From: Vicugna vicugna
Taxonomy: Eukaryota
Assembly (NCBI GenBank): GCA_013265495.1
Contig: MU057887.1
Span: 445,985 to 509,984, forward strand
Length of the DNA stretch: 64,000 bases
Direction of reading: 5' to 3'
The notes beneath the pieces were generated by a model that was not told where the DNA came from, made no database searches, and saw only the letters and a program-made list of their open reading frames with translations. Below, in pieces: positions 26,656-55,566 of the stretch (its first letter is position 1; each line of letters opens with the position of its first letter). Made by a program: the position numbers and the translations under genes.

Positions 26656-27779
26656 CAGGTGTCCAGCACCAGCACAGGTGCTCAGGAACTGAATTGCATG
26701 GCACTCCGATCCTGTGTCCCGGGCGTGGGGAGCTGTATCTAGCGGTGGTTACATGTGTCTTAGCCTCCTTATCTGGAATAATAATTATGGTGACTTCCTC
26801 ACAGGGTCGTTCCTAGGCTAAAGGAAGGAACCCAGGTAAAGGGCTCAGGCAACTGCTAGGCACCACATAGGAAGCCCTCCTCTGCTCCTCATTCCCCTGA
26901 GCCACTGGCCCTACAGTGTTCTGGGCTCTGGGCCCCTAAACATTCACAGGCTGCTGAAACTCACCAGCAAGACCTCCCTCGTGAATGGGAGGCTTCCTGT
27001 GGGGGTGGGGTGGGGTGCGGTATGTTAGCCAATTTTAAAACCAGCCCCTGGGGTGGGGGTGGGGAGTCCTAAGGAGGGTGGAAATAATCATTAACTCTGG
27101 CTTGGGCAGGGCAGGGAGGGTGGGTACGGGAAGGATGGGAAGGCTGGCAAGCGGAAGAGGCTTTTAATCCGGACATGTCTTGTACAAAGCAGGAAAAAGG
27201 CTTCCGGCCGCAGACAATGGGAGGAGGGGGCTCCCAGAATAATATCACTAGCGGACACTAAAACAGCTGCTTGCCCAGGTGCCAAGCCCATCTATGTGCA
27301 GTCACATTTGGTTCTCTCAACCACCTTAGGCGGGAGCACTAGCATCACCCCGTTTTACAGACGCGGAACCCAGGACACAGAGGGGCGTGAGGTCGCAGGG
27401 ACTCACGGGATCCGAACCTAAGCTTGTCCCATTCTCAGCCACCGGGCAAGAGTATTTCTTGATGAGGGAAGAGCACCGGGAGGACACTCACTCATTCACA
27501 AACATTTAGGCACCGATTGTGTGCCCAGATCCATTCTAGCTTCTGGTTATCCACGGGTGGTCCGGCTCTCACAGGGCGGCTAAGGAGAGACTGTAACAGG
27601 TGTACGTAATTTCAGAGAGTGGTAAGAACCTTGAAAGAAAAGAACCCGGGGCTAGGGGAGGGGATGGCGATTTTAGGTGGGCAGGGGTCTTTCGCAAGCC
27701 AGGCCTGTTTGGGGACCCGAGACCGGCCTGGGTCTGGACCCATCTCGGGTTGGAGACTTGAAGCTGTGCATGAGAGTGG

Positions 27780-28600
27780 TGCGGGACGTGGCTGCAGAGG
27801 GGCGCTTCCGATAGCACTTAATGCTCGCCACGTGTCTGCAAAGCGCACCTGCGCCCATTTCGCAGATGAAGAAACCGAAGACGCGCTGAGAGCGCGGGGG
27901 CAGGCAAGGAGCCGACTGAGGTTCGGAATCGCGAGCGCTCTCGCCGCACTCCACCGCGCATGCGCCAGAGGTAGGGCGGGACCTGAGTGGGAGGGCGGGG
28001 CCAGCCGCTCGGGCGGGGGGCGGGGCCTCCGGCCTCTGCCGGGCCGTTGCTTTCTGGGCGGAACCTTCGCGCGGCTAGGGCGGGCGCGCGGGGGAAGGAT
28101 TTGCGGCGCCGGGGCGGCCGGCCTCCACGGGAGTCGCTGCTGAGGGCTTCGCGGCGTCGGCTCCGGCTCCGGCTCCGGCTCCCACCCGAGGTCCGCGTAC
28201 TGTCCCCCTCTCCGCGGACCGCCTTCGGCCCGGCCCAGCCCAGCGCAACGGGCGCGCGGCCGCCCAGAGCCCGGAAGATTTGGACCGCTGAGTCGGAGTT
28301 GGCGGCGGAAGCGCGACCTCCGACCAGCGTCTCGGCGGCGCCGCAGGTGAGCTGGCAGGTGGGGGAGGCCCGGGGGTGCCGGGTAGAGAGCCCCTCAAGA
28401 CCCCGAGGCCCTCAGGAACCGTCCCGCACCCACAGGACCCCCGGCTCCCGCCACTCTGGATCCACAACCACCTCAAGGACCTCGACAGATCTCGCTCGGT
28501 TCCCAGGACTTCCCCTCTTCTCTTGGGAACCTCAGCCCCCGAGACCCCTCGGGATCCGCCCCGGCCGCTCCAGGACCCCTAGTCCCGGCCACCTCTAGCC
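27780..28600 (+). promoter_or_regulatory. FAM118A: FAM118A CpG-island promoter
   Basis: Very CpG-dense. Perfect NRF1-type palindrome GCGCATGCGC at 27956-27965 and multiple GGGCGG Sp/KLF boxes ~27974-28027. TATA-less. Confidence 0.85.
28050..28346 (+). other. FAM118A: FAM118A non-coding exon 1 (5' start approximate)
   Basis: Strong donor CAG|GTGAGC at 28346/28347 within the CpG island. The next acceptor of the gene is at 38645, 9 nt before the ATG. Confidence 0.65.
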
Positions 28601-34340: not shown

Positions 34341-36776
34341 GGTACCGGGAGGCGCGATGGGGGAGGTGGTTAGTAAGCTACCGCAGTGGAGCTGGGGCGT
34401 TGGGGTGGGGGCTTTGTTCTGCCAGCTGTGAGTGACAAGTTCCGTATCTGTAGTTTATTCTAGTTTGCATTCAACTTAGTTTGATGAGCATTTATTTAGT
34501 GCTGGGTGCTGGGCAAGAATAAGGCAGTCTCTGGCTGCTCTTTATTTCCGTTCGTAAGCACTTATGTTCTCACATTTAAGCAGAAAGCGTCCTGTCAGAC
34601 CTTCACTCATGGCTTCAGATGAAGAGGACGGAACTATTTATACAAATCTGTGCTGGGGCGTGATTTTGCTTTCAGGAAATGCTGATAGGTCCTTGAAAAA
34701 AAAAATGGGTTGCTATGATGACTTGGCTTCGGGCCTGCAAACTGTGGTGACGACATAATCACCAAGGAAACCAAAAGATGCAGCTTCTAAAAGGTCTCGG
34801 AAGGCTTTTGTTACTGCAGTCTGGAAGCGGACTGGCTCGGAAGAACCGCGGTGAGGCTCGCTGTCCTACAGAAACTTCCAGGGGCAGGTACTAAGTGCTT
34901 TGGAACCTCTTGCTTGGTCCTCGATTTCCAAACCAGAAGGGCTTGGGGTGCTTTCTAAGTCATTGTGAGGTTTGGCTCCGATAATTATGTTGCTGAAAGA
35001 ACAGGAAATGAGGTAATGTCTTTATAAACTTGTTATAATGAACTGTAAATGTCTAAATATGGGCAGCTATGCGTTCATCACTAGAGTTATTGTGCTGAGA
35101 TTTAGCTAACTGGGTACTTCCTGTGTTGGCTGCTTTGATTCTTAAAGTATTAAAGCCTTGAGGCACATCTGCCGGCTGAGTCTGGAGCCTGCGCGGCTCG
35201 GCTGGAAGTGCTGAGGACATCCAGGCTCAGGAGCAGAGAGAGGCTTGAGCACTAAAACCAGCACCGAACTACACAGGAGTGTATGCGCGCACCTGTTACG
35301 TAAGTGTTCAGTGCTGGTAGTGATAACTTGTTCTTCTGGAAAACTTTGAAATCACTTAATTTTGGAGTTAAGTCCAGCCCACAGAAGTTTAGTTTACTCA
35401 GACTTTTTGCAGATACGTAAATGTTTGGGTTTTCAGTTTGTTTTTATGATCATGCATATTCGGAGCATCAGAAGCAGTTGAACAATAATTGAAAGAACTA
35501 GAGAGAGATTTTTAAAGTTCTTCACAATAGTAATGGTTTGGGGCATGTGATTTCTTAAGTCATTGGTTAACCAGAGACTTTAAAAAAAACGCTGTTGGAT
35601 GTTGTGTGGAGCAGGGTGAGTTGAGAGTCCCTCCCAGGTGGGAAGGAGTAACTGTTTTCAAGTGATGCAGGTTGTTTGGGGGGCAGTTGGATTAGTCAGT
35701 CGGTAAGCATCTGGCATTAACTTCTCACATAGGATTGAGTAAGAGTGACTCGGGGTTCCGTCCTGCAGTGGGAGGTTGAGAAGGGAGTCTGTGGGCGCCT
35801 GAGCTCTTTGACTTGGCAGTTTGAGTCCAGAACACGTCATATGAGAGATTCTCAAGCTTTCGAAACTCGGTCAGTTAAAAGATTTCCTATTTTATAGCTG
35901 TTAAACCTGAGGACTGGCGAGTAGTTAGGTCAGTCACTGAGATCTCTGGGCTGGGGCCCAAGGTCGCTTATACTAGCGGTTACATAACACAGTGGAAAAC
36001 CTCAATATTTGTTCCTTTCCTGAGAGACTATCTAGAAACAGATGACCTGGATGGTGACCCGCAGCGGGAGGGGCGATGGGGCTGAGCACTAGCCTTGGGC
36101 GGGCGACAGGCATCTGTGAGCAGCGTTTTCCTCACCTGCACACTGTGGGCTCTTAACATTTGGGGAAAGGTCACAGACCCTTGGGGAGTTTGATGGAAGC
36201 TCCGAGCCTTTGCCCTGGGTTGGGGTGGGGGGTCGGGGGGTTCACTGGCATGTACAGGAAGTTGTATCTGCATCTTCGGGGCTATTCTTAGGGCCGTGTT
36301 TAGCTTTAAAATCTAATAATGCTGCTCATAGACTGATGAAGCCTTGTCTCCTTACCCTGGAGAATTCCTTCTGGTGACCTGATTCTAACTGAGGGGAAAA
36401 AGATTACACTTGTGAAAAGGTGCTTTTCAGTCAGTGTGCGTAGGAGATGCAGAGAGGGCCCTGGTGTATTCTGCTGACCGCTGTTCTGGAAAGCAGTTTG
36501 ACAGTGTGTGCTGAGGTGTTGTACAGAGTCCATGTTCTTTAACTCAGCAGTTCTGCTTTTCAGAAATCTCTCCTGAATAGATAATTTCAAAATAGATAAA
36601 AAGCCTTGTGCACAAAGATGGTTGTCAGCGTTACGGTAACATCCTGCACTGGGGATGTAGATAATGTCAGTAACGAGGAGGTTCATGTATGCAGGTACTG
36701 CACTTGTGTTTATGAACAGTTTAATAATGTGAGGGAGATGCTTTTATTATAATGCATGAAAAAAGGAGGACATGGC

Positions 36777-38653: not shown

Positions 38654-38700
38654 ATGGATTCAGTGGAAAAGACAACAAATAGAAGTGAACAAAAATCAAG
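38654..38700 (+). CDS. FAM118A: FAM118A exon 2, coding part (exon starts 38645)
   Basis: [32 protein letters not shown]; donor GTAAAT. Confidence 0.9.
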
Positions 38701-41700
38701 GTAAATAAAGTCGACTGCACTTTCAGACAGGTCTATGGCCTCCATCACAGGCCTCCTTGTCTGTTCTTTAGTACCTACGAAGGCGAAAGTGGGGTGAGAG
38801 CACTGGGTCAGGAGGGGAGCTCAGGGGCCCTGTAACTACCCCTTGCTTCCACGTGAGAAATGCTCCAGAAGGCAGTTTCCTTTCTGCCCAAGGAAGTGCC
38901 CATAGCCTGGTCCCCACACCAAGCAGCAGGTGATCAGAGGGTCACATCTAAGACCAGGGGTGCCACGCCTTGCAGGAAGGACGTCTCTGTCAGCGGGCAG
39001 GTTACGCTGTTGTGAAGTGAGGCTGGAGGAGGGGTGCTTGCCAGCGTGGGTTGGGACTGCTGCGTAGCGGAGGGCCGGCGCTTTGCCAGGGGTTTGCTTT
39101 TCTGTCACTGCAAGCAGGGATCATTTTGTCGTCATCGTTTGTATGCAGAAGCTCTTTGCATTTTTAAGGGAAATTAAACTGCTGAGCTTTGCTGTTCGTA
39201 AATGTCTATCACTTAAATGTGTGCTCAACACCATGGGGAACTCAAAGTGAGGAAGACACAACTGTCTCCAAGTCCCTTGTGGGATGAGGATAGAGCATGT
39301 GAAATTAATACACAAAAAAGAACAATGCACAGGATTTACTTCCAGTTAGTATAAGCTAGGGGGATGGTGTGTGTGTGTCCAGTGCAAGGCTGTACTTGAC
39401 CTCACCCTTCACAGGTGTTCCCAGACTGCACTGTTTTTCTTTGTGGTTGTAATACTTCCATGCTGACCGTCATTCTCTGCCTCCCTTGATTTTAAGTAGA
39501 AAGTTTCTGAAGAGCCTCATCCGGAAACAGCCCCAGGAGCTGCTCCTGGTCATTGGCACTGGTGTCAGCGCTGCCGTGGCCCCGGGCATCCCCGCGCTCT
39601 GCTCGTGGAGGGGCTGCATCGAGGCGGTCATCGAGGCCGCCGAGCAGCTGGAGGTGCTGCACCCAGGGGACGTGGCTGAGTTCCGCAGGAAGGTGATGAA
39701 GGACCGGGACCTGCTGGTTGTTGCCCACGATCTCATCCGGAAGATGTCCCCTGTAAGTCTTCTCAGACAAGGACTTTGGGTGGCACAGGGGGCAACTTGA
39801 TTCTGGGCACAGGTCAATCTGTGAATCTAGTGTTTTAATTTCTACAAGCCTGCGTCATGTTTGTTTCCCACAGAGCTGGGCTGATGAGCCAGAAATCTCT
39901 CAGTCCATTTGAATATTGTCTCTTTAAACAGAGGGGATGCCAGGCGCTGTGCGGGCTCCTGAAACAACCTGTGTTTCAGACGGAGCCTGGATACCTGAGC
40001 TTGTGTCAGGGACCAGCCTGCTGATCTCAGCCTTGGTTAGTGAAGGGTGGGGTGTCCAGGTCTGAGCAGGCCGGCCGGCCACGTCTCTCCTCATGACAGG
40101 TGGTTCCTAAGCACTTCAAGGTGGGAGAAGATGTAGCTTCTGTGTCTGCAGGTGGAAGGGACTACCAAGGGGGAAGGGCAGTGGGTGAGACAGAGATGCT
40201 CGCTGGGTGATGCCCTGGAGTCAGTGGGGCTGGTGCTCTCACCCAGGTCTCAGCCAGGTCATCGCCATCCAGGATGCGTGCGCACTGGCCTGTGGCAGGT
40301 TTCTGATTCTGTTTATTGAAGGACAGCCGTCATCTGAGGGGTGGGGAGATGTTGGATTGATAGGGAGAAAGTATGCAAACCAGCGTGCAGAATTCAGACT
40401 GCTGTGAAAAGAAACCTAAAAGCACATGGCTCAAATGTGACTGCATTTGTGTTTCTACAGAGAAGCCTGGGTGGGCAGCCACGGGAGAGCCTAGTGGTGT
40501 GGCTGTGGGGGGGACACGGGCTCCTTTTTCTTGGTCTGCCATCGTCACTCTGCAGCTTCCCCCTGACGCCCCAGGTTTGCCGCCCCAACTCCCACCATAA
40601 TGATGTGCGTCTTCTGGGGGGGGAGACTGGGACTGGGAGGGAGGGCCGTGCGGCATCCTGTCTGGATTTTGACAGGCAGGCCACATACCCCGCTCTGTTT
40701 TCATGGCATTGGCCAGAGTTCTCATGTGGCCAAACCTGGCTTCACCAGAGTCTGGGAGAGTCTGGGTGGCGTGCCAGGTGTGGGCGTCCTGTTCTCACGG
40801 GACAGCTGGCATCACAGGGCAGGGGTGGCTGCTGCTTGTTTTCATAAAGAGAGTGTGTCGGCTCAGAGCCGGCCGCCCGTCTGCGTGCTGCCAGTGGCCG
40901 CTGTCCCGCCCCAGGCAGGGCTGGGTAGTGGCCGCAGAGACCGCGACCGCGAAGCCTGCAGCTGCTTGTTCCCTGGTCCCTTAGAGACAGTAGCTGAGCC
41001 CTGTCCGGGGAGGCAGAGGGGGTAGACCAGAGGAGGGTCATAGGGCTGGGAGCCCGTTCAGAGGAGGTCATTCCTTTGAAGAGAGGCCAGCTCGGTTGAT
41101 ACTTGTTGAATCAAGGAGATGAGTATTTATCTTACTCTTTTCTTTACTTTTGTGTCTTTTTGAAAACTTCCGTAAAAAGAGCTGAAGTGAGGCCAGTCAG
41201 AATGGTGGTTTTCCCCAGCCATGTTCAGCAGGTTGAGAACAGATTTAGAGTAAGTGGAGAGTTAGTTTTATCAGGGTTGGGGTTTTGCCAGGGAAGTTGA
41301 CAGCGTTTTGAGGAGTAATTGCAGTGCTGCGTCGTGGAGTCTAGGCTGCCTGATGGGAGAAGTCAGGCCGGCGGCAGGTGAGAGACAGTGGGTCGTGGCA
41401 GCGTGTCTTGATGGGGTTGAAGTTTCCTGGGAGCCAGGGTGCAGGAGAGCTGGGCAGGTGGCGGGAGAGGCCGGACCAGGGGTTCTGGAAAGGGTCCCGC
41501 TGTTGGTGATGACAAGGTTTGGGATGTGACTGCGTCGTGGTTGGTGGAGGTGGGACAAGAGCGCAGTAGGAGAGTGCTGGGCGAGTTGAGAGGCCGTGGT
41601 ACAGACGGGGTCATCCACATGCAGGCACACCCGCCGCGAGCTATGACAGAGGTGGAGCTGGAGAGACTTGTGCACCCCCACATCTTCGCTGGTTGGGGCG

Positions 41701-44700
41701 TCGGGGTGCAGGGGTGTGGGGAGCCGGCTTCCAGTGGAGGAAGGAGGCAGACGTTCCCAGGAGAGGATGAAGACGTGGGGGCTTACTAAGGACGGGTCCC
41801 TGGGGACAGTGGAGGGGTTTTCAGGGCTGGGAGGGCTAGGAGAGCGTCAGAAAAGGGCGTGCCAGCCGTGGGGCAGCCGGCCTCTGCAGGGATATGCCTG
41901 GGGGAGAGCAGTGACGGCCACTCCCGAGCCTGAGGGGAGGGGGCGGCCCAGCCGAGGGCGGGCAGAGGGGTTGCGTGTGAACTCCGAGTTCAGGCTCCAC
42001 AGCCTGTGCCCCCAGCCCCGGGCGAGGCCGGTGAGGGGAGGTAGGACAGGCGGCGCAGGAAACCTCTGGACCCTGCGTCCTCCTTGCCCCGCCCCCGCTC
42101 CTCAGGTCCCCTTCACAGCAGCTCCCCAAGGGTAGATGTGTTTGCCCTCCTCCTGCGCCAGCCAGGCCCTGCCCCCCTGGGCAGTGGCCTTCGGCGCTGC
42201 ATCCACCCCGGACCTCCCCCTAGTCCTGCTGGAGCTCTTGGCAGCATGGCATGCTGCCTTTCATCTACTGTCCTAGACTGATGAGGAAGAGGAAGCTGGG
42301 CCTTTGTGTCTCTCGCAGAGGGAGAGGCGCAGTCTTCAGCGTGGTCCTCAGGGCCCCGCGTGACCAGCTTCCAGGTCACCTCTGACCTCACCTGTGACAC
42401 ATGCCTTCACTGTGCTCCGGAGGCCGGGCCAGTGCTCACCCCCCCCGCCTGTGCTGTCACCTCGGTGCCGTCTCACCTGTTCGTCCCTCTGATGGCGGCT
42501 CTCTCCAGGGCTCCTCACTTCTCAGCCTCTCCTCACACCCTGTATCCCAGCCCCTTCCTGATGCCCTTTGGCCCGTCCAACCTTTGCCCCCTCAGTACTC
42601 GCCCCTTTCTCTGCTTTGCTTTTCATCACGGTTGATGTCTTACTTACATTATTTGCATGTTATCTGTCTCTCTCCTCCTTTTACCTCTTTTAATAAACTC
42701 TACAAGGTCAGGGGGAGGGGACAGCTCAGTGGTAGAGTGCGTGCTTAGCATGCACGAGGTCCTGGTTTCAACCCTAGTACCTTGGTCAAAATAAATTAAA
42801 AAAACAACCCTAATTCCGCCCTCACAAAAAAAGACAAAACAAAAGTAAACCCTACAAGGTCAACAGATTTCTTTCTTTAAAAAAACAAAAGAAAACCCCC
42901 GTAGCCTAGCACCTGGTGTCGCAGCGCCCGCCTAGGCGCGCTGGCTGTTGACGGGTGATGTTTTTGTAACTCCGGTCCACCTCTCCGTAGCGCACGGGCG
43001 ACACCAAGCCCAACTTCTTCCAGGACTGCCTGATGGAGGTCTTCGACAACCTGGAGCAGCACATCCAGAACCCACTGGTGCTGCAGTCCATCCTCAGCCT
43101 GATGGACAGGGGCACCATGGTGCTGACCACCAACTACGACAACCTGCTGGAGATCTTCGGGCAGCAGCAGAGCAAGCCCATGGAGTCCCTGGACCTGAAG
43201 GACAAGACCAAGGTACGGGCCGGGGGCCAGGCCGGGCCGCGCCTTCGCACCGCCGGGGGGCAGCGGCCAGTTAGTGGTCAGGGAGGCGCCGCCCGCTCCC
43301 CGCCATGCAAGGAGCCGCGAGGGCCTGGGACGGAGGGCACTGCCCCCGCTTCTAGACGGGGGCGACGGTGGCGACGGTGGCAACGTCGCCCCCAGTTTGA
43401 TGCTGTGAATTGTGGTTAATTTGCTTACTTATTTATTTATTTTAACAAATTGGGGTTGCAGTGTATGTAAAGTTTTTATCCCTGTTTTTCTTCATTAATA
43501 CTCTACTGTGAGCATTTTGTCATTAAGCTGTTTTTATTGATTCATTTACTTGTTTACTTTTATTGAAGTGTAGTCAGTTACAGTGTGTACACAGTGTGCA
43601 CAGCATCATATTTCAGTCCTACATATACATACATGTATTCGTTTTCATATTTTTTCATTTAAGCTGTTTTTAGAAGCATGATTTTAAATGTAATTTCATT
43701 GTGAGGCTACACTATAGTTGTCACCTTCCTCTGTCATTGTTGGCACTCTTGACAGTTGTAAATAATGCTACAGGGGAAATTTTTACACTTTTAATAAATT
43801 CCTAGAAAAGTGTTAGGGTCAAAGGGTATGACTGTTTTAAAGAGAAATGATATAAATTACTGAAGTGTTTGCTGGAAGATTACCAGTGTCCATGCGCCCG
43901 CGCTATGTAAGGGGGAGTCCATTTCCCACATCTTGCCGGCACGTGGTGGTGCTGCAAACCAGACAGAGCACACTTCTCCCACTGGATAGGAGCACATGTT
44001 ACGTTTTTATTTGTCACTAAGGTTGAACATAATTTCGTTACATTGACTGTACTTCTGTGACCTGTTTGCCTAAAGACTTATAATATGACCACCAGCTCCC
44101 ATGCTGCCTGTGTTAACCTGCTCCACCATGGGAGGAGGCCTCAGCCCAGCTCCACACGCAGGGAAACTGAGGCACACTGAGACTGTGTCCCATTCGGGAC
44201 CCAGGAAGTGTGCCGGCTCGGCTCAACGCCGGGCTTCCCTTTGGCAGTCGCGGCCCAGGCCCCTGCCCTGTGAGGGGGCCGGGAGAGGCGCTGTCACCCT
44301 CATGGTGGGGCCGCTGGTGACACGTGATAGAACACCTGCTGCACGTCAGGACAGCGAGGGCCCATCTGTGAGGCTGCTCGCTGCTGCACATGGTGTCTCT
44401 GGAAATGCCCCGCAGATGGCGTGTAACAGAGACGCCGGCTGGTCCTGGGCCTGCGCCCGGCGGCAGGGGCGGTGGTGGCGGTCGATGGCCTGGGGCTGGC
44501 AGTCCCGCCCCCGATGCGAGAGGCCCGGCCTGAAGACGAAAGTGTGCACAAGTTGTGCGTCTCCTTAAGGACCTTGTTCTGCATCTTGACATGAAGTCAA
44601 CACAGAGCTACCTGAGGAATTATTTTTTCCATGTACATCTCTTTTGGGTGTAAAAACGATGTTTACACAGCAGTAATTAAAATACAACATGTGACTCAGA

Positions 44701-47700
44701 AGTGAAGGCCGTCCTGATCTCCCTAAAGGCACCGGTCTTAAAGGGCGAAACACTCTGAGATGCTGAAGGTACCTTCTCTGTCACTGTCTCGGGCTTTAGA
44801 GAGGCCCTTGCTGCTGTGGTGCGCGTGAGTAACCAGCACCAGCGGCCGAGGTGCCCGTGGGTCTTAAGGGCACAGCTATAAGGTAAAGCATCTCTCCTGC
44901 CGCTTCCAAGGTAGGTGAGAGGCCAGGAGCCGATGTAGGCATTTCCCTCTCGTGTGTGTCCGGCTTGCTCCCCGGCAGGTCCTGCGGTGGGCGAGGGGCC
45001 ACATCAAGTACGGAGTTCTGCACATTCACGGCCTGTACACCGACCCCTGCGGGATGGTGCTGGATCCTTCGGGATATAAAGACGTCACTCAGGACCCAGA
45101 AGTCATGGTACGCCCGGCCGGCCCGTCGCCGGCTGAGCCGTGGGGCGGTGTGTGCGGCCCTCTTGCCTAGGGGGGTGGTGGCACTTGTGCGGTGAGACTC
45201 CAGGCCCCAACGGTCTGGAACATTCTTCTCTGGCTGCTCCTCCCCACTCATCCCTTCTGTGTTCATTCAGCCACCTCCTCTCCTTTCTCTGCTTCACAAT
45301 CTCTTTAGCTTTCAAAACCTAGCTTTAAAATTTCACTCTTTGTGAGGTTATTTGATATCCTTGACGGAGTGAGGTGTTTGCAGACGCTGCTTCCCAGCTT
45401 TTTATAAGCTCGTTGATTATGGCTCTTAGGAGCCCCGGGGTCCTCACCGCCTCACCATCAAGCTCGGAGTCAGGCCTCTGGCCTCGGTGCTGATCCCTGC
45501 GCACAGGGTGGCCCCGTGGACGACTGGGCTGACGCCCTTCAGCTGCCTGAGGGATGGCGTCGGTGGGGATGAGAGATGCCCTGCTGACACTGAACCTCAC
45601 TGAGGTGTCTGGGTGTCTGAATTGGTGATTCTCTGCTGTGTGCCTGAGTGACCCCATTAATAATCTTGGCCTCCCCCTGCGCCTACTCCCTTGGGTCATT
45701 GTCACCAGTTCCCTCCTCAGCTCTCCTGCCCTCACTCCCTACAACCCTGTTCTCGGGACACCAGGCCCCTCCCTGCAACGTTCCCACCTGTGATCCATTG
45801 AGACATTCATTCCAGGGCACTGCACGTGCACAGCTCTAAACCAAAAAAAAACTTCATGTCCTTATGTTTTAACCATTTAAAGCTGTGCATAATTCTAGAA
45901 GGTCTGAATTGAGTGACCGCACTGACAAGGTTGCTGGTGGTGTGGTGAGCAGTAGCGCCTCTACACGGGTCTGAGGCCGGGGCCGGGGACCCTGGGTTGG
46001 AGACAGAGAGGCTCTTTCTTCCTGCCTTCCTTCCAGTGGGTCTTGGGAAAGGCCGCTTAGGCAGCCCGATTTAAAAGGGCAAGTGTGTGACGTTATGGTC
46101 TGTCCTAAGATCTTGCTGGCTTTCACAGGAAGTCTTCCAGAACTTGTACCGCACGAAGTCTTTTCTGTTTGTGGGCTGTGGAGAGACCCTGCGTGATCAG
46201 ATATTCCAGGCTCTCTTCCTCTATTCGGTGCCGAACAAGGTGGACTTAGAGCACTACATGGTTGTGCTCAAGGAGAGTGAAGACCACTTCTTCAAGCACC
46301 AGGCGGACATGCTTCTGCACGGAATTAAAGTCGTGTCCTACGGGGGCTGCTTTGACTATTTTCCAGGATATGTGCAAGACCTTGCTGCTCAGATCTGCCA
46401 ACAGCGAAGTCCAGGTACAGGATTTTTTTTTTTCACTTTTCAATGTACAAAACCGACAGGATTCTTCCAGTTTTTGCTTTTTTTTTTTGTAGATATACTT
46501 TACATACCATAAATTTGAGATGTAATTTTACATACAGTCAGATGCGCCAGTCTTCCCGTTATTTATTTATTTTTAGTGTCTCTGTGTACTTAAAAAACAG
46601 CAGATGGGGAACTTGGTGTGATGGTGACAGTCTGTAAGGAGAGCTCTGCTGCCACTTGCATAGCTGTGCGTGGAGCCCCACACGTCTGTCCCCGTTTCAC
46701 GCGACGTGGCAGCTTCACGTTGCCTTCCCCAGGAGGGGGCACTGCCCAGGCAGCTCCATTGGTTGTGACACTGAACACCTGGAAAATGGCGGAGTCTTGT
46801 ACCTTCACCCGTCACTGCGTTTTAAAAGCTAAAGCTGCAGAGGCACAAAGGGCTTTTATGAAGACTTTTCTTTCTGTTCTCATATGATGTCTTTTCCCTG
46901 TTCTGCTGAGTGCAACACACCTTTTCAGTGAATGTCCTCGGCCCTTCTTCTGGGGAGTTGGTCATCTGCCAGGAATGACCAAGGTGACTGAGCACTTCTT
47001 AAACTGGTCACCTGGACATAAAGGCTTTGAGGTTGGTGTCACTAAGCATGGATGACGGCAGACTTGGAAAGGCCTGTGTGGGCTCTCGTGTTGTAACAGG
47101 AAACCCAGCCGCGGTCACCCACGCGGTGGAGTTGGCTTAACCACCGAGGTGGCAGGACGTGACCAGTGGTGACCTTGAAGACTAGACAGCGCAGAGATCA
47201 TGGTGACCGAACGCACAGATAATCCAGCAACTTCATTTCTTCCCACTCGTCCTTTTCAGAATTGCTAATAATTAGCAAAATGGACCGATTTAAGCTGCAT
47301 TTCCATTAATAACAGCACACCTAGGACGGCAGGCAGTGTTTGCTGAGGGGGGAGGAGGGACTGCTGCCGCGTCACATGCTGCTCCCAAGTCTACGTTCTT
47401 GCGCTTGTTGCATCGTTAGTCCCAGCACCCGCTGCTGCTAAAGGATGAGGCAGGCTTGGCGGGGGGCTGACCTGCCTAGTTAGTGCCCGGGACCCCAGGC
47501 TGACAGCAGAGTGGAACGTGTGACTGGCTGTGTCCCCGCACGCGCTCTGGGGGGCAGCGGCTCCAGTCCCTCTGCCCCTTCCCACTGTCCCTCCCGCCTG
47601 CACTGGCACAGCTGCCTGGGGGGGCCAGCACCCAGCTGACGGCGGGGGCTTCCTGTCCCCGCTGGGCCCCCTGGCCGGACCCTGGCCGCTGAGTGGATTT

Positions 47701-50700
47701 GACAGCTGGCCGGGGCTGAAGGCCTGCTGGACTTGTGACCTGTGACTCTGTCCCTAAGGACACTTGCACTTAGTTTCTTGAGGTACTTTTGTTAGGCGAG
47801 GGCAGCACACCAGCAATGACATCCCTGATGGTGACAGTTCCGTGTGCCCAGCTGGCTCAGGCGGCTCCCACAGATGCCCCGGGAGGCGGAGAGGAGAGGG
47901 CGGGAGCCGGCCCCCGGCCCCCGGTCCCCAGGATGCGAGCGCGGGCTCCCCTGAGCGGGCCTCTCCTGCAGCCCCCCGCCCGGAGCCGAGCGGCCGAGGA
48001 GGAGGCGCCTGGAGCCTCGGCTGTGCTGACTGTCTTCTTTCTTCTCCAGATGCCGAGCGAGTGGACAGCACCACGCTGCTGGGTAAGGCCGACCGATTGT
48101 ACCAGCCTGTTTCTGGCCGACACGCGTCTCTGGCTTCCTGCCATCGTTTATAAAGTCACAGAAGTGTTTCTCACGTTAAATTCTTAGCCCGTGTTGTGTG
48201 CAGGCAGCCCCACCAGCAATGGAAATAGCAGTGGTGGTCCCGCCACAAGGAAGGGGCTAACAGTGCAGCCCTTCGGCCGGGAGGCAGCTGTCAAACGTGG
48301 GCCAGCTGCTGGCGCCTGAGAGTAACCGCCTGTCCTAGAACCCGGAGTTAGTCGCTGGGGTCAGAACGAGACGCTGCTTGTGTCATACCATTTGGTCTAA
48401 GATGGAGTAATTTTTGACCCATCCCCTTCAGAGATTTTAACTGCAAAGTTTTTAGCATTCTGTAAAATTTTCTGTTTATTACTTGTTTGGAACACGAGTA
48501 TCCTTCTGGGCTCGACTCTGCCCGTTTATTGACGAGCTGGGACCGAGCTCAGCGGCTGCTGCGCCCGCCTGGGGTGAACCTGGCGCAGGTCTCCCCACGT
48601 CGGCCCGTCAGTTGGGTTGGCGGGGGCCTCTGTGCCCCGGGTCCCCGCGGGCCCCAGCAGAGCTGCAGACGGGAAACGCCGTAGTGCCGGGTGGGCTTCC
48701 GTTTAGGAATTTCAACAGTTGTCCTCAGCCTTCCGTTTCTACCTTATGTCCTTGTGAAAGGTCACATTTATTATAGTTGCTTTCTCTGACTCCAGAACCA
48801 TCCATTTCTTTTGAAAAAAGCAGTAACTTGATAGACATCTGTCACACATGGCAGGGATTATTTGGTTAGTGTGTCAGTAAAATCAGATTTAGAGACTGGA
48901 TCTCAGAGGGTAGATTCTAGAATAGATGAGCTTTTTTTTTTAATTTTCAAAAAATTTTTAATTGAAGTATAGTTGCTTAGTTGCTGTATAGTATCATATA
49001 AGTTACAGGTATATAATATGCTTCACAATTTTTTGAAGGTTATGCTCCATTTATAGTTATTATAAAATATCGACTGTTTTCCCTGTGTTGTACAATATAT
49101 CCTTGTAGCTTATTTTATACCTAATAGTTTATATCTCTTAATCTGTTACCCCTATATTGTCCCTCCCCCCTTCCCCTCTCCTCTGGTAAATGCTAGTTTG
49201 TTCTCTGTATCTGTGAGTCTGCTGCTTTTTTGTTCTATTTTTTGGATTCTACATATAAATGATACTCAGTATTTGTCTTTCTCTGTCTGACTTATTTTAC
49301 TTGGTATAATGCCCTCCAAGTCCATCCATGTTGCTGTAAATGGCAACATTTTCATTTTTCTTTTTTATGGCTGAGTAGTATTCCGCTGTGTATACATTAC
49401 ACACACCACATCTTTATCCAGTCATCTGTTAATGGACATTTAGGTCGCTTTCATATCTTGGCAATTGTAAATAGTGCTGCTGTGAACCCTGAGGTGCATG
49501 TGTCTTTTCGAATTAGTGTCTTTGTTTTTTTCAGATATATACCCAGGAGTGGGATTGCTGGGTCATATGGTAGTTCTGTTTAGTTTGTGGAGAACCCTCC
49601 GTACTGTTTTCCATAGCAGCTGCGCTAGTTTACATTCCCCCCAGCAGTGCACAGGGCTTCCCATCTCTCCACATCCTCACCAACCCTTGTTATTTGTTTT
49701 CTTTTTGATGACAGCCATCCTTAGATAAGCTTTTTAATTAAAGTTTTCACCTTTCAGGTAATGCATGCCAGGACTGTGCAAAGAGGAAATTAGAAGAAAA
49801 TGGAATTGAAGTTTCAAAAAAACCCAGACAATCAGATACTGGTACAGTGTCCTTTCTTTCCGGGGGGACCTAGTGCAGCGGGCCTTGTTTGTGGGGTGTC
49901 CTCAGTTCCAGTGCTCCGCTTCAAAGCCCCTTGGTGGAGGGGGCAATGCGTATGTCACTCCAGCCGCCCAGAGGTATCCACCAAAAGGTGTCTGTTAAAG
50001 TTAGCATGTTGTTGAAGAAAGACACACAGAAAAAGCACACAAATTGTAAGGTCAGCCCAGTGAATTTTCACAAAGCGATACCCCCACGTAGTCACCTCCA
50101 GTTCAAGAAACGGAACGTTGTCGGAGCCTCGCTGCCCCCACCCCCCATCGCTTTTCAGTCGCTCCCTCACTGCCCTGGGGTGAGCACCATCTTGACTTAT
50201 GTCACCGTAGTCTCCAGGGAAAACCACTTTGAGTCATTTTTTTGTTAACCTCTTATCACTGAATTAGATTTATTTGAATATTTAAATCTTGATTTAAATA
50301 TTGATTTAAACTGTGCATTTAAATAGACAACCTCTGTTGACCCTAGGAAAGGCGACCTGGCTCACTCATACTGTCTCCTGCCAGGTTTCGGGAGTCTAGT
50401 TTCTGTTGTTTAACTAGCGCACTTGCTGACGTTATTGTGACTTCCCGGTGAGAAGCCTAGGCTGCCGCAGCCCCTGCCCCCCCGCCTCCCCCCACCGCTG
50501 CTGCCTCCTCGGCGTCCGGCACTGGGCTCCAGGACTGAAGGGGGATACGCCCTCTGGGCCGTCTGTAGGTTGGCACTAAAAGTTGGGAAACAAAAGCAAT
50601 TACTTAAGAAACAGGGAGGAAGCAGTCTTTCCTGGTCAGCGCGCCCGCGGGCCGCGCCCCTGGGCCCGGGCCCCGGCTGCTGCGCTAGCGGAGGGGTCGT

Positions 50701-52995
50701 GATACCGAGGTCCCGCGTTTCCTTACATTCCATTAGCTCTGCTCCCGTTTTTGACTGTTGCCTACTGGTGGTGGTTGGGTTGCTTTTTTTTTTTTTTTTT
50801 ATTTTTTTTTTTTTTGAGTCATTTCTGGATTCCTTTTTCCTCCTATGGTCCAAAAAAACACATTTCATGGTATTTTTAAACATGCACTTTCTCTCAGTCA
50901 CCCTGCCCCTCATTTCCCGAGTCATCCTCTGCCCACCTGCTTGTTCTGGGCGGTGCGCACCTGTCGCCCTGGAGCGCCCTCCTCGCCCTCCTGGACCACC
51001 GTGCGGGTCTGTCTTCTCCCCGCCCGCACCCCCTCTGCTGGCCTGTCCCCCAGGAGCCCCCTCGGCCCCGCGCAGGGCCTGCAGCTCCCCGGGGGCTGCT
51101 CGTCGCCTGTGGTGTGGGAGCCGCCATTCCGATCCCCCCTTGGAGCTCTGCCATCTTGGGTGTCCGCGTGTCCTGTGGAAGAGGGTCTGCGGCTCAGGCT
51201 GCTGTGGTTTGTAGGTGAACTGTCGCTTCCCTTTCTGGAAGCTTTTAGGATCTTCCTTGATGTTTAGACATTTCATGAGGACGTCTGTAGGTGGAAACCC
51301 TTTTGATGTCCCTTGCTCAGGTTTTTTTGCCCCCTCCGGCTGTCTTCTCTGTTCCCTCTTCCTGGAACCGTGTTAGTTAGGACCTCCTAGGTTGGCTTCT
51401 GCTGTGTTCTGTTTTCTCTAATATCTGAATTTTCATTTTGTCTTTTTTTCCCAAAAACTTTCTGGGAGATTCTCAAAATCATATTCTACTTCTTGGGTTA
51501 AATTTTGAGTGTTATTGTTAACTTCTGAGAGCTCTTGTTTTCTGACCTAGTCTCTCTCGTAGCATCTGTTGTTTTATGAGGAAGGTTATCTTTTCGGATT
51601 TCCTGGTTGTCTGACTGCTCCATTTCTGAAAACGTTAGGATAGAGGGTTTCCAGATAACTGGCTTTATTTTCTGTTAGATAAGAAAACCGCGGTACAACA
51701 CTCTCAAGCACCTGCGTAACAGTCCACCCCGCGCTTCTGAGAGCTGCGAAGCCCTCACCACGCTGTTACTGACGTGCTTCACGTCTAAGCTGGCTCCTCA
51801 GCGGGTGCTGGGGCAGTGCTGCGGCACGCGCTTCCTCCTGCACCGCAAGGAACGTGTGCTGTCGAAACAGCCTGTTACAAATGCAGAGACTCGTACCAGA
51901 CCTTAGTCAAGTAAAGCAAACATGGCAGGTTTTTAAGTGGCTGCTGGCAGTGCGCTGTGGCCTGAGTCAGGACTGGTGGCGGGAGGGGATGGCTGAGGTG
52001 GTGGAGGTGAGCGTGCTGGTGGCTGCTCCCTGGCTGCGGCTGACTCCGCACCCCCTCCCTCAGATTCGTACGTCAGTGCATGTATCTTCAGAGGGAGTTC
52101 CATTTTGATGGTATTTTGGATAAAATTCTGTGAAGTCTCTTAGCAAATATTTGGATTGTGAATTCAGCCGGTAGGAACATCTATAGCTAAATAAAAAGCT
52201 AAAGCTAGAGTTCGCTGAGTTGTCCCTGCAGGACCAGGGGCTCTTTCCCGTTAGCCTCTGCCCTGTTCCTTGTGCCCGCACGCCTGGGCTCCTCCGCGGC
52301 CTGCTGATCTGAGCAGCGGGCCCGCGTGACGGTTCTCTGTCCAGAGCGTGGATCATTGCTGCGTGTATGTAGCTTTTCTCCCCCTGGGGCGACCCATGGG
52401 TGGTGGTATCAGGCAGCAGAGCTCACTGCCTGCTGGACTTTGCTCCAGAGCAGTGGTCAGGCCAGTCAGCGGGGACCCCCTGGAGGCCAGCACCCACACC
52501 AGCAGCCTCCTCCCCAGGGAGCTCTGGCTTCAAAGCCCTCTAAGGCCACTTTCTTCCAGAAAGCTTTGTCCCGTTCTGCACGCAGAGGAGAGACCCGAGG
52601 TCATCTTCCCAGTGCTGCTGGCCGTTCTTGCTGGCAGGAGAGCTCAGAGCGCGTGGCAGGCTCCCACCTGCAGGCAGGCCCATTGCGCACACGCCCTGAC
52701 CTCCATCCTTCTCTCCACTTCCCTGGGCTCCCGTTGTATGTGTGAGATTTCCAGAGCTTTGCAGATCTAATGTCATAATTTACTTTGTCCCCGATGGTAT
52801 TTATAATTCACAGGCTATTTCTAGACGGTGGCTACTGTTTCCATTATGGAGGTGTGTTCAAAGTCTTTAGTACATGAGGAAAACTATAACCAGTTTTTGA
52901 AGTAGAAATCCCACTGCAAATACTTTTTAAAGATCCAGTTAATGTTTTGGTTTTCCTTTCCTTTTCTTTAAACAGATGATGCTGGAGGGTCTTGA
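38654..52995 (+). CDS. FAM118A: Protein FAM118A (SIR2-like domain), complete spliced CDS join(38654-38700,39500-39752,42991-43212,44979-45107,46129-46414,48050-48082,49758-49841,52976-52995), 357 aa
   Basis: [97 protein letters not shown] matches FAM118A. Exons 47+253+222+129+286+33+84+20 = 1074 nt; all introns GT-AG. Confidence 0.96.
39500..39752 (+). CDS. FAM118A: FAM118A exon 3
   Basis: [31 protein letters not shown]; donor GTAAGT. Confidence 0.94.
42711..42845 (+). mobile_element. tRNA-Ala-derived SINE (Vic-1-like) with TSD
   Basis: AGCTCAGTGGTAGAGTGCGTGCTTAGCATGCACGAGGTCCTGG. TSD TAAAC(T/C)CTACAAGGTCA at 42694-42710 / 42846-42862. Confidence 0.85.
42991..43212 (+). CDS. FAM118A: FAM118A exon 4
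   Basis: Acceptor [38 protein letters not shown]; donor GTACGG. Confidence 0.94.
43537..43658 (-). mobile_element. Short L1 3'-end insertion with TSD
   Basis: TTAAGCTGTTTTTA at 43523-43536 / 43659-43672 flanks TTGAAGTGTAGTCAGTTACA.. L1 3'UTR-type sequence. Confidence 0.75.
44979..45107 (+). CDS. FAM118A: FAM118A exon 5
   Basis: Acceptor [37 protein letters not shown]; donor GTACGC. Confidence 0.94.
46129..46414 (+). CDS. FAM118A: FAM118A exon 6
   Basis: Acceptor [33 protein letters not shown]; donor GTACAG. Confidence 0.94.
48050..48082 (+). CDS. FAM118A: FAM118A exon 7 (33-nt micro-exon)
   Basis: Acceptor TTCTCCAG; (D)[10 protein letters not shown]; donor GTAAGG. Confidence 0.9.
48937..49721 (-). 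mobile_element. 5'-truncated L1 in FAM118A intron 7
   Basis: Antisense L1 ORF2-end/3'UTR. TSD TAGAT(G/A)AGCTTTTT at 48923-48936 / 49722-49735. Confidence 0.85.
49758..49841 (+). CDS. FAM118A: FAM118A exon 8
   Basis: Acceptor CTTTCAG; (G)[27 protein letters not shown]; donor GTACAG. Confidence 0.92.
50230..51600 (-). mobile_element. Highly decayed old L1 (L1ME-like) including an ORF1 remnant
   Basis: Minus strand near 51210-51280 reads AAGATCCTAAAAGCTTCCAGA..CAGTTCACCTACAAA (KILKASR..QFTYK), like the L1 ORF1p motif. Boundaries approximate. Confidence 0.5.
52976..52995 (+). CDS. FAM118A: FAM118A last coding exon (stop)
   Basis: Long polypyrimidine tract + AACAG; (D)DAGGS; TGA at 52993-52995. 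Confidence 0.9.
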
Positions 52996-55566
52996 AATCT
53001 TTAAAACCAATAAAACTGCAACTTGAAAACCAGCCTTCTGTAACCACAGTGCCGTCCCATACGATGAAGAATGTCAGAGAACTCCACCCGGGATCTCCGT
53101 CCTAAACCGTCGAGCATCCCAGAAGAGCCCAGGGGTGCGTGGCGCTCGGGCGCTGGGTGAGAGCCCCGCCGTGTGTGCTGACTGCTCAGGCGGTGATGCG
53201 CACACACGCCAGGTGTCCTTTGCGAGGATGGATGGACGCCTACCTCAGGGACCACGCTGGCGGGCAGGGAGGCCTGCTACTCCCGACTCCCCTTTGACCT
53301 GCCCTCTGTCAGGTGGCTTTTTCTGATGAAAGGGGGAGAGTGAAGACTGTCCAAGCAACAGGAGTTGCCAAAGAGAAAATAGGAAGTTTGACACTTAAAT
53401 TTTATAATTTTTATGTGGAAACATCTGTTACTGTAGGAAAAAAGTTAGAAGTCTATTTGTTGCATTGTTAAATAGTAAAAGCGGACGGACCCTGGAGGCA
53501 CTGACTGCTGGCGAGGGTTGGGTGTTTGAAGAATGGCTAGCCCTGTGCGGCCCCTTTGGGGTTACATGACTTCAGTAACTTCGCTTCTGAAGAATGGCAG
53601 GTCTGATGCTGCCGAGCAGTGAAGTGGTGAGGAGCCAGAGGGCCTTTCCAAAAGTGCGTTTCGTGGTGGGTAGCTGAGAAGTTACACGTGGGCACAAGAC
53701 TAAGTTTGAAACTTCTAGTTAAGTTCTAAGCTTTCCAAGTCTTTATTGTATGAGGTAAGTCCAGCCTTTCTGTTCCTGTCTCTTAAAACCCTCGCCCCCG
53801 GCCCACGTTAAAGGGTGTGCATGCAGCGCAGCAGGGCCTGTGACACGGCGATGCTGTCGGGCTTCCCTGGGGCAGACGGCGCCCGGGCGGTGGCTCTGGA
53901 ACCCGGCACAGGCCCTACTTGGGCTGTTTCAAGGCTGCCTATTTTGTCGCTCCTCTGGGTTTAGAGAAAGTGAAGAACAAGAAACGCGAGGTTGCAATGT
54001 GCAGGGAACGAGAGAGAAGCCAGAGACCTGCTTAAGACCTTTTGTTTCTTTCCTTTTTGAAGCATGGAGAACAAATCTTTCGTTACTCTGGTCAGAAATA
54101 AAATTTTATCATCAACTCTGCTCAACTTTTCTTTAGCCGTGATACGGCATGGTATGTATTTAATGAGAAATTTTACCTTGAGTTGCCGTTTGGTTGTGAA
54201 ATTGATTACTTGAGTATGTTTAAGTATTTTAAAAAGCCAACATTTTAAGTTCACTTAAAAAAGAAAAAGACACACGAAGTGCAATGAGGGCAGGCTATCT
54301 GAATCTGAAAGTTGAGCAGACACAGGGTATAGCAGCACTGCAGCATGGGAAGTGACGGGGAACAGGACACAGAACTGGGAAAGTGGAGCCAGTTCCAGAC
54401 ATGCTGTGAGTCTCGAGACTGGAGGCCTTCTTGCTGTAATGAACGGACATATCTAGTCAGTTCTGCTGTTTGTTCTTTCAAAATGCAAATTTATTTCAAC
54501 ATGATTGACGTATTAGAAACAATCTGAATATAACTCATTTGCTTATGTATAATTTTGTCTGAGAAAACCAGGTGAGGGAGCGACTAAGTATGGCCTTGTT
54601 TGTTTTCTGTCTCAACCTAGAATAGTTCTGACATTTTCAGGTGGTTTTATTTTAATTAGTTATGCAGGTACCTATACAGTGAGCCTCCTTGCTGCCTCAA
54701 CAAAGCCTGAAATACTCTCTGATCCTTAAAAGGAGTTTGTCGCACCTGCTCTGGGCGAAAGCGGGAGCACAGCCGGCTGCCCAGAACTGGGGGGGGGGCT
54801 CCACCACCCGCCCTTAGACCCCCACCGGCTCCCTCCGACACCCTCCCCCCCACTTGACCACAGCAGCGTGCTTCACCCAGTGGGTGAGCTCACATGCCAA
54901 CTTCAGGGTGTTTCCTGAGATGAAGTGCCATATTTGCTACAGTATCTGTGTTTCTTAACCGTTTAACATGTGTAAAGCCAGCTATGTACTAGGGTCCTGT
55001 CTTCCTTTTTCAGTACGGTGCCCCCACCCCGTGTTTCCCATCACCCGTGCTCTCCATCGTGTGCTTCTGCGTAGCACGGGGTTTTCAGGAGTGTGGGTGG
55101 ACCGCGTCAGAACAGGGATCCTACTTTGAAGATCACCGACAGTCCATGAGTCCAGGTTAGGAGAGAACAGCCCCAGCAAAGAAGAGGGTCTATGCTGAGC
55201 TCACATGGCACCAAACGGACAGCTCAGTGTCAAGCTGGTGTCTTTCAAGGCACAGGGAGGCGGTGATGTAGATGTATTACAAGCACTAAAAAAGGACAAA
55301 TACAGTGGCTTCTGCTATTAAAGTTCTTAGAGATCAGCTGGAGGAGGCCAGGGAGCAAGGTTTTTGTGACTTAGTCTGTTTCTTAGGCACAGAGCGCGTG
55401 AAATAATGAGTGTCGTTCAGACTGCTTCAGGAGGCGCTCCTCGGTCAGCACTTGGGCCCAGATAGTCTTAAGTTCAGAGCAACCAGCTCCCTAGAATTTT
55501 TTAATTTTGAAATGGGAATGAAGTACTATTGAAAACTGCAACTTTTTTCCTACCCCAAACAATGTA

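Follow-up and report, generated by a model that had tools for sequence, protein, structure and literature searches.

Introduction

Besides SIRT1-7, FAM118A and FAM118B are the only sirtuins of vertebrates, and, as published in 2024-2025, this pair connects the anti-phage depletion of nicotinamide adenine dinucleotide (NAD) in bacteria with innate immunity in animals. Baretic et al. (2025; PMC12700824) describe both proteins as SIR2_2 sirtuins, with ThsA as the closest one, and a 2024 preprint (10.1101/2024.09.18.613514) assigns them to the SIRim subfamily and connects FAM118B with Toll-like receptor (TLR) signalling. Here we describe the FAM118A gene of Vicugna vicugna, present in a 64,000-nucleotide stretch of contig MU057887.1 (GenBank assembly GCA_013265495.1, positions 445,985 to 509,984 of the forward strand). 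We will refer to this whole stretch as “the window”, and all coordinates are given in its own numbering. We hold with high confidence that positions 38654-52995 (+) contain an intact FAM118A orthologue, a sirtuin of the SIR2_2 (SIRim) type lacking the zinc module, which would process NAD together with FAM118B.

The two human proteins interact in cells, and in an epsilon-NAD assay each paralogue alone displayed no or very low activity, while the mixture of both was robustly and synergistically active (PMC12700824). This joint activity was lost with the FAM118A substitutions N148A, H191A or F109R, or with their FAM118B equivalents, F109R being the one that disrupts the head-to-tail filament contact (PMC12700824). 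Co-overexpression of the human pair lowered cellular NAD to ~15% of control; filament electron microscopy was carried out on FAM118B, and AlphaFold2 (AF2) and AlphaFold3 (AF3) produced head-to-tail homodimers and heterodimers of intermediate confidence (PMC12700824).

The residues mutated in human FAM118A (F109, N148, H191) are found under identical numbering in the window protein, so that both the inference made from this locus and the experiments proposed for it are already in print for the orthologue. A first-pass annotation, prepared from the letters of the window alone, had presented the gene as a poorly characterised NAD-processing effector: the NAD-processing reading is supported, but already known, and the word “poorly characterised” is out of date, as the wet-lab tests that it proposed have been published for the human protein (PMC12700824). 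The association of FAM118B with NAD processing, filament formation and innate immunity, which it also mentioned, is likewise in the literature (PMC12700824; 10.1101/2024.09.18.613514). The finding is thus a known one, on an ordinary intact mammalian orthologue; what the window adds is a clean eight-exon FAM118A model for one more mammal, together with the flaws that it reveals in the public dromedary models.

Gene structure of FAM118A

The coding span of FAM118A occupies 38654-52995 on the + strand, is distributed over eight coding exons, all of them on that strand, and begins with an ATG at 38654-38656. Coding exon 1 (38654..38700), recovered by tblastn with the aardvark orthologue P0018 (94% identity), encodes residues 1-15 plus two bases of codon 16 and ends at a GT donor. 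Coding exon 2 (39500..39752, bounded by AG/GT) encodes residues 16-100, including W52, the head-to-tail residue L19 and the Rossmann motif GTGVS at 39555-39569 (codons GGC ACT GGT GTC AGC). Residues 101-174 are provided by coding exon 3 (42991..43212), which contains F109, the head residue of the filament, and TTNYD at 43126-43140 (ACC ACC AAC TAC GAC), the latter contributing N148. Coding exon 4 (44979..45107; residues 175-217) carries HIHG at 45021-45032 (CAC ATT CAC GGC), with H191, and coding exon 5 (46129..46414; residues 218-312 plus the first base of codon 313) carries D240, F292 and FLFVGCG at 46162-46182 (TTT CTG TTT GTG GGC TGT GGA).

The remaining exons encode the C-terminal tail. 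Coding exons 6 (48050..48082, 33 nt, bounded by AG/GT), where the tail starts, and 7 (49758..49841), with a single CxxC, were both located by tblastn with P0018. Coding exon 8 (52976..52995), found without mismatches by a back-translated pattern of the last residues of several orthologues, comprises the last six residues and the stop codon TGA at 52993-52995; it is preceded by a pyrimidine tract and a CAG acceptor, and an AATAAA lies downstream of its stop, at 53009. The first-pass annotation had given the gene as 38654..46414, where the start is right and the end is only that of coding exon 5, with three more exons following.

Splice sites are canonical throughout, with an AG acceptor at eight of eight exons and a GT at all seven internal donors. 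Joined by their coordinates, the exons give a coding sequence of 1074 nt with one terminal stop and a product of 357 residues, which aligns over its full length and without gaps to two rodent FAM118A proteins, at 96.1% (P0013) and 95.8% (P0020) identity. If the donor of exon 7 (49842) is skipped, the frame continues to a TAG at 49871-49873, and ten other residues replace the last six; the resulting read-through form, of 361 residues, is covered in full by the primate isoform model P0029. The window FAM118A is, in this sense, an ordinary intact mammalian orthologue.

Exon 5 is matched best by FAM118A models of the dromedary, with 100% identity over 95 residues, which points to a camelid-like mammal as the source of the window. 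Outside this exon, the dromedary models differ from the window. Three of them (P0001-P0003) include retained intron sequence and omit the canonical first coding exon (MDSVEK...), which is intact in the window at 38654-38700. The alternative first exon of P0001-P0003 corresponds to a short open stretch, MLLKEQEM followed by a stop, at 34987-35010 (+). The missing exon and retained intron could pass for damage, and one could suppose from them that the FAM118A copy of this genome is decaying or unexpressed. No support for decay was found, and we consider it extremely improbable in view of the eight open exons, the canonical splice sites, the 96% gapless identity to the rodent orthologues and the intact first exon. 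The dromedary models seem to be annotation artefacts or minor isoforms, and the window locus supports the canonical FAM118A protein.

Family assignment and conserved residues

The assignment of FAM118A to the SIR2_2 family was addressed with four orthologues, 92-95% identical to the window protein. All four exceed the curated cut-off of Pfam SIR2_2 (PF13289; 24.5 bits), with 46.8-58 bits and E~1e-12 to 1e-15, and none of the four matches canonical SIR2 (PF02146) at E<=1, in agreement with the earlier proposal of a SIR2_2-type rather than a SIR2-type protein; no second Pfam domain besides SIR2_2 was found in the FAM118A orthologues scanned. The window's own spliced protein obtained 186.5 bits (E 6.8e-56) with a profile of 20 distant, non-FAM118 SIR2_2 proteins, compared with 4.8 bits for the best of 1000 shuffles of the same protein, in a control which is not fully independent, as the members of the profile had been picked as hits of a FAM118A profile; 19 of the 19 members scanned also match Pfam SIR2_2. 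PADLOC matches of the orthologues, covering the sirtuin part only, comprise LmuA (E down to 8e-13), ThsA, Dsr1 and SIR2. From these sequence comparisons, the placement of FAM118A as a sirtuin of the SIR2_2 (SIRim) subfamily holds.

A profile of 25 FAM118A orthologues retrieved 1535 representatives at E<=0.001, and SIR2_2 was carried by all 23 of the hits that were scanned. Among these 23, fusions to NPHP3_N/NACHT-type nucleoside triphosphatase (NTPase) modules and fusions to ankyrin repeats occur in three proteins each, and fusions to TPR and to SH3 in one protein each; one hit shows SAVED and CHAT matches, both of them sub-threshold. The nearest non-vertebrate relatives of FAM118A (P0249, P0253, P0266, P0245, P0256) include fusions of SIR2_2 with NPHP3_N/NACHT-type NTPases and with ankyrin repeats, an architecture that resembles that of immune receptors of the nucleotide-binding, leucine-rich-repeat (NLR) kind.

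Conservation was evaluated on an alignment of 88 sequences, including 22 distant relatives. Columns conserved in at least 90% of the sequences are G35, G37, W52, T146, T147, N148, D150, H189, H191, G192, G233 and D240 in window numbering (P0036, an orthologue also used for modelling, is numbered one higher), and in a 24-sequence alignment N149, D151, H190, H192 and G193 of P0036 are invariant. The positions, order and numbering of the four motifs noticed by the first-pass annotation are as it had given them, with starts at residues 35, 146, 189 and 229 of the spliced protein and hence N148 and H191. It had also reported the lack of a zinc module, which is borne out by the positions of the nine cysteines (50, 55, 113, 198, 234, 291, 307, 327 and 330): no Cys4 module is present, because C198 is the sole cysteine between the HG motif and FLFVGCG, and the sole CxxC, C327-C330, lies in the C-terminal tail.

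The FAM118A clade and the FAM118B partner gene

In a quick maximum-likelihood tree, the window protein falls within a set of placental FAM118A proteins, with a Shimodaira-Hasegawa-like approximate likelihood ratio test (SH-aLRT) value of 97, and a branch with SH-aLRT 96 separates the 17 FAM118A rows from the rest. In this tree P0136 appears as a long-branch sister of FAM118A; its FAM118B label is a guess. The orthologue P0036 shares 44-50% identity with the FAM118B rows. The FAM118B locus itself was recognized in the same 2.03-Gb assembly, on contig C9412, 295284-306707 (loci L005-L007), with four open core exons that encode TTNFD and HIHG and are 47-52% identical to FAM118A; over the parts compared, it shows complete or almost complete residue identity to the human FAM118B PDB chain. 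Judged by these exons, the partner gene is present and apparently intact in this genome.

Predicted structure and fold neighbours

An AF2 model was made for P0036, 95% identical to the window protein and used in its place. Built with 88 diverse sequences, the model reached a predicted local distance difference test (pLDDT) value of 80.6, being confident over residues ~16-314 and disordered at both termini, including 315-358. Sequence searches of the PDB, either with a single protein or with the FAM118A profile, returned FAM118B but no bacterial sirtuin at E<=1; the relationship to the bacterial proteins is visible only by fold comparison. The top Foldseek match of the model is FAM118B (9r3e_B; E 2.7e-28, target template modelling score 0.92), and all others among the matches listed up to rank 50 are ThsA, DSR2, HAM-SIR2/KomBC or SPARSA. 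The first-pass annotation had suggested such a comparison, and ThsA and DSR2 do stand among the neighbours, ahead of the canonical sirtuins.

An exhaustive VIA-align comparison of the model with 48,161 chains gave a similar order: FAM118B at Z 33.6 (root-mean-square deviation 2.0 over 297 residues, 50% identity), SeThsA at Z 19.1, KomC and KomBC at Z 17.9 and 17.8, Avs5 at Z 17.1 and 16.7, PsSIR2 at Z 13.6, and the canonical sirtuins together with SirTM at Z 12.1-9.1 (SirTM, Z 9.8). As modelled, the fold of FAM118A is clearly of the defence-sirtuin kind.

The sirtuin fold is common to NAD-degrading and protein-modifying enzymes, as canonical sirtuins (Z 9-12) and SirTM are found among the neighbours, and FAM118A might accordingly be regarded as a lysine deacylase or a SirTM-like ADP-ribosyltransferase rather than as an NAD-degrading enzyme (NADase). 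We deem this very improbable: none of the four orthologues matched Pfam SIR2 at E<=1 and there is no Cys4 zinc module, the fold is clearly nearer to the NAD-degrading defence sirtuins (Z 17-19) than to the deacylases, and the human pair depletes cellular NAD when co-overexpressed (PMC12700824).

Proposed function

Several points weigh against the conclusion that the window encodes an intact, NAD-processing SIR2_2 sirtuin. Single exons do not reach the Pfam SIR2_2 cut-off, the two scores obtained being 17.8 bits (exon 3 alone, E 0.0037) and 12.8 bits, and exons 2 and 4 alone give no Pfam match at E<=10; taken singly, the exons are of insufficient length for such a match. The selection of the 20 profile members and the use of P0036 as a substitute for the window's own protein, both mentioned above, also belong here, as does a first AlphaFold model from a shallow alignment of 25 close orthologues, which was discarded at pLDDT 49.9. 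Splicing and expression of FAM118A in this species are predicted from sequence and orthology. A search for sequencing runs gave 24, of which 20 contain part of the stretch. Five are recorded as RNA, and in these the share of the sampled words of 44900-53100 is 0.28-0.32, which taken by itself demonstrates neither expression nor splicing. Lastly, the activity of the human pair is modest, and the authors do not exclude other NAD-processing activities (PMC12700824).

According to the mechanism that we propose, residues ~16-312 would form a single-domain fold followed by a C-terminal tail that is predicted to be disordered, and NAD would be bound in a cleft lined by G35-x-G37-x-S39, W52, N148, H191, D240 and F292, as in the human orthologue. 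By analogy with the human protein, FAM118A alone would be nearly inactive, and its head-to-tail assembly with FAM118B via F109 and L19 would yield an NAD-processing enzyme, most likely an NADase. D240 and F292 are also present in the window protein, and L19 aligns with L32 of FAM118B (RKFLKSL / RKLLPSL register). The human-type activity, the synergy of both paralogues and the dependence on filaments should presumably hold in this species, and the physiological role of FAM118A may, also by analogy, lie in innate-immune signalling. The bacterial ancestry that the first-pass annotation suggested for such a pathway is, like a direct immune role of FAM118A itself, an inference.

The human assays would also fit a mainly regulatory or scaffolding FAM118A, which binds NAD, co-assembles and switches on catalysis by FAM118B with little turnover of its own. 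Each paralogue alone showed no or very low activity, and mutation of the Asn, the His or the filament contact in either of them abolished the joint activity, so the experiment does not reveal which site catalyses (PMC12700824). On the other hand, the presumed catalytic residues N148, H191 and D240 are all kept in the window protein, and their columns are conserved in at least 90% of FAM118A, FAM118B and distant relatives, as expected of an active enzyme; we therefore see a mainly supporting role as unlikely. A further and rather doubtful possibility is that FAM118A and FAM118B form a mixed filament in which FAM118A is the licensing subunit, and which perhaps makes a signalling nucleotide instead of just depleting NAD. 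Some bacterial NAD-processing immune enzymes do make a signalling nucleotide, and with such a task FAM118A would play a non-redundant part of its own in innate immune signalling. The window sequence gives no distinction between a licensing subunit and a plain NADase, the latter being the activity that we favour for the assembled pair.

Upstream region and other open frames of the window

Two 500-bp windows with a GC content of 0.60-0.75 and a CpG observed/expected ratio of 0.84-0.93 mark a CpG island at 27501..28500, ~10 kb upstream of the FAM118A ATG. This island probably represents the FAM118A promoter or a first exon that is non-coding. Long open frames without Pfam match are found on both strands of this island. 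Within the last intron, at 50410-51372, a frame of 320 residues (-) and another of 257 residues (+) overlap on a low-complexity stretch; neither of the two has a Pfam match, and both are probably non-coding. Elsewhere in the window, 11 long stop-to-stop frames matched no Pfam family at E<=0.01.

Comparison with known systems

The closest described counterpart is human FAM118A, the orthologue of the window gene, named SIRanc2 in the preprint (10.1101/2024.09.18.613514). Its canonical model has 357 residues, as many as the window protein, and F109, N148 and H191 are numbered alike in both; its isoform models are 89-91% identical to the window protein, with isoform-specific gaps. The two genes differ by species only, as no species-specific feature was found in the comparison. 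The nearest solved structure is that of the paralogue, FAM118B (PDB 9r0p, 9r0s, 9r3e; also SIRal/SIRanc; sequence E 2.4e-95), which shares the active-site and head/tail residues with FAM118A. Unlike FAM118A, it has a 2-residue insertion before the TTN motif, and its gene is a distinct one, located on a different contig. The role in the TLR pathway and the filaments seen by cryo-electron microscopy are results on FAM118B, not on FAM118A (PMC12700824; 10.1101/2024.09.18.613514).

Canonical sirtuins (SIRT1-7, Sir2, Hst2) have in common with FAM118A the Rossmann-type NAD-binding fold, GxGxS and the Asn and His of the equivalent motifs. They differ in the Cys4 zinc module and in the Pfam SIR2 match, both of which FAM118A lacks, and the central sheet has seven strands in the FAM118 proteins and six in SIRT1 (PMC12700824).

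Among bacterial systems, ThsA of Thoeris (PDB 7uxt, 8wc0, 6lhx, 8btp) resembles FAM118A in its SIR2_2-type NADase domain without zinc module, in the Asn/His pair and in the filament-dependent activity common to ThsA and the FAM118 proteins. The likeness is detected both by Foldseek with the P0036 model (E~1e-8) and by the PADLOC ThsA profiles with the orthologues (E 1e-6 to 1e-7). ThsA is only 17-22% identical to FAM118A. These PADLOC matches cover the SIR2 part only (profile positions 98-195 of 242 and 105-230 of 478). ThsA has a C-terminal sensor domain known as SLOG; FAM118A appears to be devoid of a ligand-sensing domain of this type, since Pfam gives SIR2_2 only and the tail is predicted to be disordered. 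The filament topologies of FAM118 and ThsA are described as different and of independent origin (PMC12700824).

The defence-type SIR2 fold is also shared with DSR2 and SPARSA (Foldseek E 1e-8 to 1e-7) and with KomC, KomBC and Avs5 (Z 16.7-17.9), at an identity of 13-17% between FAM118A and the SIR2 domains of DSR2, KomBC/HAM-SIR2, Avs5 and SPARSA. The Dsr1 match of PADLOC (E 1.7e-4 to 7.8e-6) is confined to profile positions ~40-262 of 1227, and DSR1 and DSR2, of ~1000 residues or more, combine an N-terminal SIR2 domain with a large C-terminal sensor region. In DSR2, KomBC, Avs5 and SPARSA, large sensor modules accompany the SIR2 domain, either fused to it or as its partners, whereas FAM118A, with its 357 residues, is a stand-alone domain.

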